The translations under genes and the position numbers were made by a program. Of a stretch of DNA of 64,000 bases, positions 20,384-25,358 are shown piece after piece. The stretch is from the NCBI RefSeq assembly GCF_048403405.1, contig NZ_CP183129.1, one strand, 5' to 3'. The DNA is from Escherichia coli. Lineage in GTDB: Bacteria; Pseudomonadota; Gammaproteobacteria; Enterobacterales; Enterobacteriaceae. The notes below the pieces were generated by a model, which was given only the letters and a program-made list of their open reading frames with translations, ran no database searches and had not been told where the DNA came from. Positions within the stretch are counted from its first letter, which is position 1; each line of letters opens with the position of its first letter.

Positions 20384-21433
20384 TTAGTGGTAGTTGATTT
20401 TAACTATCAGGTCTTTCTGAAATGGGCCATAGACGAGTGGTTCACCAGGTTTTTGGGTTAATTCGGCCTGGTAATCGCGGGTTGCCATTGCCGCACTCTG
20501 ACCGGGAATATAAGTACTAAATAATTTGAACTGGTTAAATTCAATATCTTCTTGCGTTTTTTGATCAGTAATTCGCATGAGCAAGCCGTTACCTATTTCC
20601 AGATGCGTATTGTCATATAATGTATCTGAAGTAAAGAAACTGGTTGCAACATCAAACTGTTCGGTACAATCAGACGCAATGTCTTTTATGGTAGAAACGC
20701 TGAATGCTGCCTTCGGTGGGAAAGTTGCAATGGAATTCGCAGCGATCTGCCCAAAATTGACTATCTGACTTTCCGGGGAAATGCGGACGTCGACACTACA
20801 GTCAAGGAATGAAATATTATCTAACCCCGTAATCGCATAGCGTAAATTTTTCGCGTTGGGGGCCATGTTCGCCCCGCCTTCACCGTCGAATTGCAGCACG
20901 TTGACTGTGCCAAAGTTTACCGTCTGATCTCCTGCCGGGCGGCTTTTGAATTTTACATAGACGCGAAAATGGGCGTTAAATGTTACATTTTTTTGAAGAG
21001 TGCTGCCATTGCATACAGGGTCATGATAATACCCATTATAGTATTGTTCATATTTATCCAGGCACGCATGAGTATCAATTTTTTCATTTGTCCCTTCATA
21101 ATCTACACCATTATAAGTCACGCCAAATGTTAAATACGGATTATTCAACATATCGGCACTATTTATTTGGGGCAATTTGATCCAGGCATAGACATTTTCT
21201 GATGGGTTATTACTTGACCATCCTGGTGCATTGTCACAATAAACTGTGATATTAATATCTCCGCTCTCCCAAATTTTTTGCCCAGGTTGCGCATTCTCTG
21301 GAATTTTGAACGTTGGTAAATCTCCATTTATGAGGGTTGTTCCTCTGTACCCATCCTGATAGCAATCAACAGCAAAAGCTGAAACGTTAAAAAAAAGGCA
21401 AAGAATCGCCAGTAGTCGAAAAAGTGTAATCAT
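20384..21433 (-). CDS. yqiI: fimbrial tip adhesin-like protein (Yqi/EA-I type)
   Basis: 349-aa secreted ORF, last gene of chaperone-usher operon. Confidence 0.7.
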   Translation of the reverse strand: MITLFRLLAILCLFFNVSAFAVDCYQDGYRGTTLINGDLPTFKIPENAQPGQKIWESGDINITVYCDNAPGWSSNNPSENVYAWIKLPQINSADMLNNPYLTFGVTYNGVDYEGTNEKIDTHACLDKYEQYYNGYYHDPVCNGSTLQKNVTFNAHFRVYVKFKSRPAGDQTVNFGTVNVLQFDGEGGANMAPNAKNLRYAITGLDNISFLDCSVDVRISPESQIVNFGQIAANSIATFPPKAAFSVSTIKDIASDCTEQFDVATSFFTSDTLYDNTHLEIGNGLLMRITDQKTQEDIEFNQFKLFSTYIPGQSAAMATRDYQAELTQKPGEPLVYGPFQKDLIVKINYH

Positions 21434-22179
21434 ATTTTCCCCTTCTTCGCAGGAGTACTTTGGCAGAGGGACTGGACGGAATTACATACTACTTTAAACA
21501 TCTCCAGCCCGCCGTAGTCCGCCACAAAGCCTAACTGGAACGTAGAGGGCAGGTTGTTTAAGTGTTGAGTCGCAGAAGCAAATGGTGCCACCATAATACT
21601 GTCCGCACCAGGCATCAGTGTCTTGCCATTAGTGCCGATATAGCCGACGGTAATATGATAAGGCGTCGGGTTATTCAGGGTCAGCCCGGCGGCGGTGCGG
21701 GTAATCGTCACTTTTTGCAGAGGAACCATCTCTCCTTCTTTTAACTCAATCGCTTTCGGTCGCCAGAATAGTTTCAGACGGCTTTGCATGGCGATTTGCA
21801 TGACATTCTGTTCTTTGGCACGCGGCGGAATTTCCCGCACGTTATAGTAGAATAGCGTTTCTCTGTCCTGTGGTAAGTTATTTAACGAGGCCAGCGCCAT
21901 CAGGCGAATTTGTACCTGTTCATCAGGCTCAATACGTTCCATCGGCGGCAGTGTTGAAATGTAATCACGCGTTTTTTTACCGCTGGCATCTTCAATCCAC
22001 GATTGAGCAAGATAAGGATCGATTTTACTTTGGTTGGTCAGGCGAACCGTTGCGCTTTTATTCGAAGCATTAAAAATGATGCGTGTCCTGTCGGGGGAGA
22101 CAGTAGCCTGGGCAAAGTTGCAGATCCCCAGAAAACAAATCATTCCTGTTGTGATTAATGGTAATTTCATTATATTCAT
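21430..22179 (-). CDS. yqiH: periplasmic fimbrial chaperone (PapD family)
   Basis: 249-aa ORF with signal peptide and PapD-like fold motifs; 4-bp overlap with downstream gene. Confidence 0.8.
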   Translation of the reverse strand: MNIMKLPLITTGMICFLGICNFAQATVSPDRTRIIFNASNKSATVRLTNQSKIDPYLAQSWIEDASGKKTRDYISTLPPMERIEPDEQVQIRLMALASLNNLPQDRETLFYYNVREIPPRAKEQNVMQIAMQSRLKLFWRPKAIELKEGEMVPLQKVTITRTAAGLTLNNPTPYHITVGYIGTNGKTLMPGADSIMVAPFASATQHLNNLPSTFQLGFVADYGGLEMFKVVCNSVQSLCQSTPAKKGKI

Positions 22180-22185
22180 CCTGAA

Positions 22186-24708: not shown

Positions 24709-24794
24709 AAAAATCCATTTCTAAAAAGGCCCAAAGTTGCCGATGAAATTTCATCGGCTTTATCGCCTGACGTTGTGTAGGTACTAATTGCCGC

Positions 24795-25358
24795 TTACTT
24801 GTAGTCGAGTACGTAATTAGCTTGTGCCTGCACGTTACCTGGGGTCGCGGTGCGTCCCAGAGATTCCATACGGGCTTTAAAGTTCAACTCCTGGTAGGAG
24901 TTAGTCGTCGGGAAGTTGATAGTGATTGGAGTGCCAAGAGTCACGTTGGTGTTGTCTGATTTCACCAGACGTACGCCTACATCAGTTGCGCCGCCGATGT
25001 TACCTTCCAGAGTGTTTTTAAGCAGGTTGGAATCGGTAGCGTCAACACTGGCAGAACTAAAGGTGATTTTGACTTTATCAACAGTATTAGTGCCGTCAGA
25101 TAAAATACAATCCTGCAAGTGAATGGTGACATCTACAGGCAGAGATTTCTGACCGCTTTTTAATACGGTATCAGCAACTTCACCGAGGTTTATTGTCTGA
25201 TCTTCATCACCAGGAGCAATAGAACAAGGTGCATCGATAACTTCACCTTTAAAAGTAATTTTACCGGACCCCTGATTAGCATCGTCAGCAAGAGCGTTAA
25301 AAGCAACGCCTGATAACAATGCGGTTGCGAACATAGATAACAATGTTTTTTTAAACAT
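24795..25358 (-). CDS. ygiL: major fimbrial subunit (PapA/YgiL-like pilin)
   Basis: 187-aa ORF, signal peptide, conserved Cys pair (APCSI ... LQDC), C-terminal donor strand motif. Confidence 0.8.
   Translation of the reverse strand: MFKKTLLSMFATALLSGVAFNALADDANQGSGKITFKGEVIDAPCSIAPGDEDQTINLGEVADTVLKSGQKSLPVDVTIHLQDCILSDGTNTVDKVKITFSSASVDATDSNLLKNTLEGNIGGATDVGVRLVKSDNTNVTLGTPITINFPTTNSYQELNFKARMESLGRTATPGNVQAQANYVLDYK

Follow-up and report, generated by a model that had tools for sequence, protein, structure and literature searches.

Is the fimbrial operon carried by this stretch of Escherichia coli DNA an undamaged version of the familiar K-12 operon ygiL-yqiGHI, or is it a different operon altogether? 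The question concerns a region of contig NZ_CP183129.1 (assembly GCF_048403405.1), which we analysed as a window of 64,000 nucleotides (nt). According to the list of open reading frames (ORFs) of this window, four consecutive minus-strand ORFs span positions 20384-25358:

25358..24795, minus strand: pilin, the major fimbrial subunit (187 amino acids, aa)
24708..22186, minus strand: outer-membrane usher (840 aa, a single open frame)
22179..21430, minus strand: periplasmic chaperone of the PapD/FimC family (249 aa; the RefSeq start is the ATG at 22170, giving 246 aa)
21433..20384, minus strand: predicted two-domain adhesin (349 aa, gene of 1,050 bp)

An initial annotation of this DNA, made from the sequence alone, had described a complete four-gene chaperone-usher operon with proteins of these lengths. 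This description holds, with all four ORFs in place and Pfam recognising three of the four products. The usher was also correctly described as uninterrupted and free of insertion sequences (ISs); it reads as one 840-aa frame, its homologues in strains UTI89, Nissle (EcN) and SC455 and in a sequence type (ST) 131 strain have the same length, and no IS was found anywhere within the operon span. The operon is thus real, complete and potentially functional, and it was known from earlier work. We are highly confident that the span is the intact operon for a pi-class chaperone-usher system known as Yqi, Ygi or extraintestinal pathogenic E. coli (ExPEC) adhesin I, a reading in which we include the assembly mechanism proposed below and an ancestral position in the chromosome.

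The initial annotation had itself suggested the ExPEC adhesin I locus, and this proved right. At exactly 4,975 bp, the span matches the length of the yqi/EA/I cluster published in 2009, which comprises a hypothetical subunit, an usher, a chaperone and an adhesin gene (yqi) of 1,050 bp (Antao 2009, PMC2771359). The same study found the cluster to be identical in UTI89 and APEC_O1, with the UTI89 cluster equal to that of the avian pathogenic E. coli (APEC) strain IMT5155, and absent from K-12 MG1655 and W3110.

We counted occurrences over 5,426 complete E. coli genomes, and took individual genomes from the best 40 matches listed per search. The operon span was found in 993 of these genomes, and one of the 993 matches is annotated as lying on a plasmid. 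Strain U1 matches the span at 100% identity, EcN and other Nissle/O6-type strains at 98.3%, and UTI89 at 94.7%. The adhesin is 99.7% identical at the protein level to that of EcN, an ST73 strain like CFT073. In UTI89, EcN and the ST131 strain the four genes have the same lengths and lie in the same surroundings, and U1 also has these neighbours.

The same annotation had further equated the operon with K-12 ygiL-yqiGHI, and here the two part company. According to its annotation, K-12 has the order zupT-yqiD-ribB-ubiK-[ygiL-yqiG::IS2-yqiH-yqiI]-glgS-yqiJ, while the window, when flipped, reads zupT-yqiD-[pilin-usher-chaperone-adhesin]-ribB-ubiK-glgS-yqiJ. The two operons therefore lie on opposite sides of ribB-ubiK. 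In a direct alignment, window positions 25820..20329 (5.49 kb) replace 145 unrelated bp of K-12 between yqiD and ribB. Conversely, the 6.6 kb of K-12 from ygiL to yqiI, including IS2 (3185071-3191707), correspond to just 72 bp in the window between ubiK and glgS, whose intergenic DNA is 34 bp long; the K-12 slot is empty. An inversion was considered as the source of the difference in gene order and ruled out, as the relative orientation of ribB and ubiK is kept; the arrangement reflects two independent insertions or deletions. On the K-12 side, the boundary of the difference falls inside the ubiK coding sequence (window 19004-19072, minus strand, at the 3' end of ubiK), and UbiK of the window (99 aa, against 96 aa in K-12) is identical to its K-12 counterpart over residues 1-77 and divergent thereafter.

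Could the operon nevertheless be an orthologous allele, K-12 ygiL-yqiGHI as it stood before IS2 entered? In favour of this, the two operons have one gene order and similar protein lengths (187/840/249/349 aa in the window and 183/834/249/354 aa in K-12), the families are detectably homologous, a 44-bp patch upstream is common to both, and the pilin scores above the cut-off of NCBIfam model NF007276 (345 bits against 189). The slots (yqiD/ribB against ubiK/glgS) speak against it, as do the protein identities of only 59.7%, 55.3%, 50.6% and 37.4% to YgiL, YqiG, YqiH and YqiI, and a nucleotide identity of about 65% for the usher gene. The adhesin is in fact closer to homologues from Pluralibacter, Kluyvera, Klebsiella, Citrobacter and Salmonella (56-69% aa identity) than to YqiI. 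The literature also separates two types: 'Yqi' in phylogroup B2 and 'Yqi-like' in phylogroups A, B1, D and E are closely related, occupy different loci and are mutually exclusive (Wurpel 2013, PMC3559732; see also Antao 2009, PMC2771359). Taken together, these observations make orthology with the K-12 operon very improbable.

In agreement with this, a distant search with the usher placed the Yqi type in 992 genomes, with 987 genomes matching at 95% or more, and a type at 60-80% in 1,308, with a maximum of two matching places per genome. It also returned 47 places on plasmids, presumably related plasmid-borne ushers. The adhesins of the two types even have separate structures in the Protein Data Bank (PDB); entry 9rwe is the lectin domain of K-12 YqiI, and 9rwu, discussed below, is that of the Yqi type. 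In summary, the K-12 Yqi-like operon resembles that of the window in gene order, architecture, homologous proteins, the 44-bp patch and a solved adhesin lectin domain, and differs in its slot, its sequence and its usher broken by IS2.

The initial annotation was right that K-12 yqiG carries an IS2 insertion, with IS2I interrupting the gene 71 nt from its start. However, comparing the window usher with yqiG compares the wrong gene, since the two belong to different loci. Because the operons are paralogues at separate slots, one can conclude nothing from the lack of IS2 in this operon as to whether the K-12 gene is intact or has been repaired. The only claim to novelty in the initial annotation, an 'uninterrupted yqiG', arose because the two paralogous operons had been confused.

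How old, then, is this operon in its slot? The same operon, with all four genes and the same ORF lengths, occupies the same slot in Escherichia fergusonii and in Pluralibacter lignolyticus ([Enterobacter]). In Escherichia albertii, the 3' end of the chaperone gene and the adhesin gene adjoin ribB, and the contig ends within the chaperone gene. In these other species the slot lies between ygiD/zupT and ribB, and its occupation in all three indicates that the locus predates E. coli. We found no direct repeats, ISs or att-like sequences at the operon ends, and the filler DNA of K-12 bears no similarity to these ends. A mobile-element origin or a recent island was considered as well, and is ruled out by the repeat-free ends and the occupied slot in three other species. 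Judged from these sequence comparisons, the operon is an old resident of the slot that was presumably lost from K-12-like lineages, not a recent island despite its low GC content (45.1%, against 50.6% for the window).

Each of the first three gene products carries the expected signatures of its family. The pilin has a Pfam Fimbrial domain (E 1.4e-23), a signal peptide ending in ...FNALA and, at the N-terminus, a donor-strand extension with the sequence GKITFKGEVI, besides a Cys45/Cys84 pair and a Tyr in the penultimate position; it is 98.9-99.5% identical to the pilins of B2 strains. In the usher, PapC_N (E 1e-36), Usher (E 1e-163) and PapC_C (E 9e-11) together cover residues 37-819, and the protein is 97.6-98.1% identical to its 840-aa counterparts in UTI89, EcN, the ST131 strain and the soil isolate SC455. 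The closest curated usher models in NCBIfam are Salmonella StdB and its relatives. The chaperone matches PapD_N (E 1.7e-35) and PapD_C and has a short F1-G1 loop. Its sequence contains the motifs DRTRIIF and SRLKLFWRP, which, read against FimC, carry the subunit-anchoring Arg and Lys.

The adhesin is less easily recognised by sequence. Pfam gives only a weak Fimbrial match (E 0.21, residues 221-348), and no NCBIfam family matched the protein. Residues 22-212 are, however, 100% identical to PDB entries 9rwu and 9rwv, deposited as 'Pilus assembly protein', which means that the N-terminal domain was expressed and solved alone, the usual practice with lectin domains of fimbriae. The AlphaFold2 model, for which 64 homologues were used (pLDDT 88, pTM 0.80), is all-beta with two domains:

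20795..21370, minus strand: predicted receptor-binding (lectin) domain (residues 22-213; PDB 9rwu match and AlphaFold2 model)
20384..20794, minus strand: predicted pilin domain plus stop codon (residues 214-349; Pfam and fold match)

The best PDB neighbours of this model are the two-domain tip adhesins CupB6, FimH, FocH, LpfD, PapG and CsuE, and the fold comparison gives a TMt of 0.70 for the match between its C-terminal half and the pilin domain of PapGII. The relation to the pilin of the operon is at the level of the fold only; BLASTP found no sequence similarity between that pilin and the adhesin C-terminus. Lys345 and Tyr348 are invariant in the 64 homologues. In the mature adhesin, the lectin domain starts from the first residue, without the N-terminal extension that the pilin possesses, and hence the adhesin could only cap the fibre. 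Going by the predicted model and the perfect PDB match, the 349-aa protein is a two-domain tip adhesin.

Given the gene anatomy and what is established for the canonical chaperone-usher pathway, we propose the following course of assembly. A promoter in the AT-rich region upstream would drive one transcript through the pilin, usher, chaperone and adhesin genes, ending at a hairpin shared with ribB. Subunits would be exported via Sec, after which the PapD-like chaperone would complete the incomplete immunoglobulin (Ig) fold of each by donor-strand complementation. The usher would recruit the two-domain adhesin first, thus placing it at the tip, and then polymerise the 187-aa pilin beneath it by donor-strand exchange. 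The product would be a short fibre, which in published orthologues binds glycans and aids adhesion as well as colonisation of the chicken lung and the kidney. Expression in the laboratory is probably low, as H-NS/Lrp-type nucleoid proteins may act on the promoter region with its GC content of 27%.

Is there reason to think that such a fibre is made? Short fibres of about 40 nm have been seen by electron microscopy when the cluster was overexpressed from a tac promoter in the afimbriate strain AAEC189 (Antao 2009, PMC2771359). The overexpression experiment that the initial annotation had proposed was thus performed in 2009, for the UTI89/IMT5155 allele, a cluster 94.7% identical to this one (PMC2771359). 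Deletion of yqi from wild-type APEC, without artificial induction, reduced adhesion and chicken-lung colonisation (Antao 2009, PMC2771359). In published work on near-identical orthologues, CFT073 Yqi binds glycans, namely those with terminal beta-GlcNAc and fucosylated ones; the published binding data are for this single cloned allele. According to a paper citing Spurbeck 2011, Ygi plays a part in adherence to kidney cells, in biofilm formation and in fitness in the kidney, and Yqi/Ygi/EA/I fimbriae are also treated elsewhere (Day 2021, PMC8545135).

The operon of the window is like the Yqi/EA/I operons studied in IMT5155, UTI89 and CFT073 in its four genes, 4,975-bp span and chromosomal slot. 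It is unlike them in its 5' regulatory region, a different variant, and in its adhesin, where 9.4% of positions are changed relative to the UTI89/IMT5155 allele and 21% relative to the ST131 allele. A sliding-window and per-gene comparison with EcN, UTI89, the ST131 strain and SC455 shows how unevenly these differences are spread, with the following identities to the window:

Pilin, nucleotides: EcN 98.0%; UTI89 98.0%; ST131 strain and SC455 96.5-97.0%
Usher, nucleotides: EcN 97.6%; UTI89 97.2%; ST131 strain and SC455 97.1-97.3%
Adhesin, nucleotides: EcN 99.9%; UTI89 87.4%; ST131 strain and SC455 75-76%
Adhesin, amino acids: EcN 99.7%; UTI89 90.6%; ST131 strain and SC455 79%

The divergent block (20350-21850) also takes in the 3' portion of the chaperone gene, and at least three deep allele classes of the adhesin and this 3' portion can be told apart: window/EcN, UTI89 and ST131. 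The UTI89 adhesin allele differs mainly at the pilin-domain end. Between the ST131-type adhesin and that of the window, synonymous divergence (dS) is about 2.2 and the ratio of nonsynonymous to synonymous divergence (dN/dS) is 0.06; in identity to the window type, the ST131 type is about level with the protein of E. albertii (81%) and below that of E. fergusonii (84%). The promoter region (25300-25850) forms a second hypervariable block, with 60-89% identity to B2 strains in 150-bp windows, and the upstream region overall has 72-83% identity to those of the four comparators. The promoter variant of the window occurs in about 114 genomes, including that of the phylogroup-D strain PCN033, and its combination with a CFT073/EcN-type adhesin suggests recombination. 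One possible, if tentative, explanation of the mosaic is that adhesin and promoter alleles, either anciently balanced or imported, differ in receptor specificity and regulation and have been reshuffled, in which case the window would be a recombinant of a CFT073-type adhesin and a phylogroup-D-type promoter.

Some relatives of the operon are visibly damaged. In PCN033, usher codon 652 is TAA (usher at 8067-10589 of its locus), where the window has TAC (22753-22755); strain 23555 has an IS1 within the chaperone gene; and FCI23 has lost pilin and usher beside an IS1 (locus 9040-10516). An intact operon is the common state, not a universal one. This ongoing decay, the extremely AT-rich promoter region and the need for overexpression in the published work would all fit a relic that is intact in sequence yet decaying or cryptic and makes no fibre here, either because expression is permanently off or because one of the usher changes, which affect roughly 2% of its amino acids, is inactivating. 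We consider this unlikely. All four genes have a dN/dS of 0.03-0.10 against B2 alleles, which points to strong purifying selection, ORF lengths are kept across species, and the deletion phenotypes in wild-type APEC appeared without artificial induction (PMC2771359).

With the operon read as an intact Yqi system, what might control it? The features of note outside the coding sequences are these:

25359..25939, minus strand: AT-rich 5' regulatory region (581 bp, from the pilin ATG at 25358 to the yqiD start at 25940)
25478..25521, minus strand: 44-bp conserved patch starting with TATAAT (25521..25516), which may be the core promoter or a 5' leader
24739..24758, minus strand: 8-bp hairpin in the pilin-usher spacer, the sole helix of the centroid fold
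20352..20378, both strands: bidirectional intrinsic terminator, common to the convergent ribB and the operon (stem and T-runs)

The initial annotation had noted about 580 bp of AT-rich DNA upstream, in agreement with the 581 bp at 26.9% GC found here (27-30% along the profile). Positions 25359-25820 are specific to the operon, and 25821-25939 are backbone that K-12 also has upstream of yqiD. No ORF of at least 60 aa lies in 25359-25939, where we found only chance ORFs of 22-35 aa and no regulator. The 44-bp patch is 84% identical to K-12 3185253-3185296, about 120-160 bp upstream of ygiL, and its core TTTAAGTTTTACTTAATCAG is identical in four of five Yqi alleles, the ST131 allele differing at four positions. 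Such conservation makes the patch a candidate for a core promoter or leader.

Silencing by H-NS, which the initial annotation had also raised, is plausible given the 27% GC. In CFT073, overproduction of TosR, a PapB-type protein predicted to antagonise silencing by H-NS/Lrp, strongly increased expression of c3791, the Yqi subunit gene, in RNA-seq.

Phase variation is common among the fimbrial operons of E. coli, and we also considered a dedicated switch, which could be an invertible promoter like fimS or work by Dam/Lrp methylation as in pap. A 13-nt imperfect inverted repeat (25383-25395/25762-25774, 12 of 13 positions complementary) does bracket 366 bp of the upstream region. This repeat is missing upstream in EcN, UTI89 and SC455 owing to a 13-nt deletion, such repeats are common in DNA of 27% GC (24 pairs per 1 kb), and a synthetic inverted junction was found in none of the 116 genomes with the upstream type of the window. 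A pap-type switch is no better served, with a single GATC (25824) and no pair in the 581 bp, and no recombinase or papI/papB-like gene adjoins the operon. The repeat is probably a product of chance in AT-rich DNA, and we give a phase switch hardly any credence.

Several points weigh against the reading of the operon as an intact, working Yqi system. The published fimbriae were seen only under tac-promoter overexpression, and expression and assembly of a fibre by this combination of alleles is a prediction from near-identical orthologues. The operon promoter is a candidate only; a consensus promoter scan does not call the TATAAT patch, whose -35 element is poor. The 5' region is 17-28% different from that of the studied strains, and regulation could differ accordingly. 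Finally, we found no report of H-NS binding to the operon in the papers that we read, and a literature search by locus tag gave only the TosR RNA-seq paper.

Within the transcript, the 4-nt overlap of the chaperone and adhesin genes suggests translational coupling. The hairpin in the pilin-usher spacer may stabilise the mRNA or act as an attenuator setting, and perhaps raising, the subunit-to-usher ratio, by analogy with papA and fimA, although this is a weak inference; folding of the whole segment gives a z-score of only -1.3. The terminator stem has 12 pairs on the plus strand and 11 on the minus strand, six of them G-C. An Rfam scan of the window gave no match inside the operon.

Compared with other well-known fimbriae, the operon has partial likenesses. 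The Salmonella Std system supplies the best-scoring curated models (697 bits for the StdB usher and 190 bits for the StdC chaperone), but these scores lie well under the equivalog cut-offs of 1289 and 370 bits. Yqi has been placed in the pi clade (PMC4578781). The operon shares with Pap and this clade a predicted two-domain tip adhesin like PapG, but has four genes only, without minor or adaptor subunits and without PapB/PapI-type regulators. Type 1 fimbriae are alike in assembly logic, in the match of the adhesin model to FimH, FocH and LpfD, and in a FimA-like extension motif of the pilin, whereas the operon lacks a fimS switch, a FimB/E recombinase and FimF/G adaptors. No sequence similarity to FimH is detectable in the lectin domain, and the published glycan specificity differs.

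The surroundings of the operon contain several further features. The gene yqiD (25940-26110, plus strand) encodes a predicted membrane peptide of 56 aa that is 100% conserved in all strains compared, and a perfect 12-nt inverted repeat (26127-26160) between yqiD and the convergent zupT looks like a shared terminator. Counting Rfam matches at the gathering score, we found an FMN riboswitch ahead of ribB (19425-19573, plus strand) and two SIB antitoxin RNAs of the ibs/sib type I toxin-antitoxin family (15432-15581 and 15808-15957, both plus strand). Downstream in E. fergusonii, three ibs toxin genes stand at the place of these two SIB RNAs. The scan also gave naRNA4 (7442-7512, plus strand) and the ES173 small RNA (60373-60436, minus strand). 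In FCI23, dsbI, dsbL and an aryl-sulfate sulfotransferase gene (assT) are inserted between ygiD and ygiC (locus 12432-15600); the window is without this insert, and its ygiD and ygiC are adjacent (27877-27913).

Yqi/EA-I is a published colonisation factor of ExPEC with a solved lectin domain, and in this respect the operon offers little that is new. The names 'ygiL/yqiGHI' have nevertheless been applied to two operons flanking ribB-ubiK, and conclusions drawn from K-12, where the operon is disrupted by IS2 and cryptic, should not be transferred from one to the other. Perhaps the one aspect that may repay more work is the allele mosaic; the classes of adhesin and promoter alleles could bear on receptor tropism and on the design of vaccines or anti-adhesive agents.

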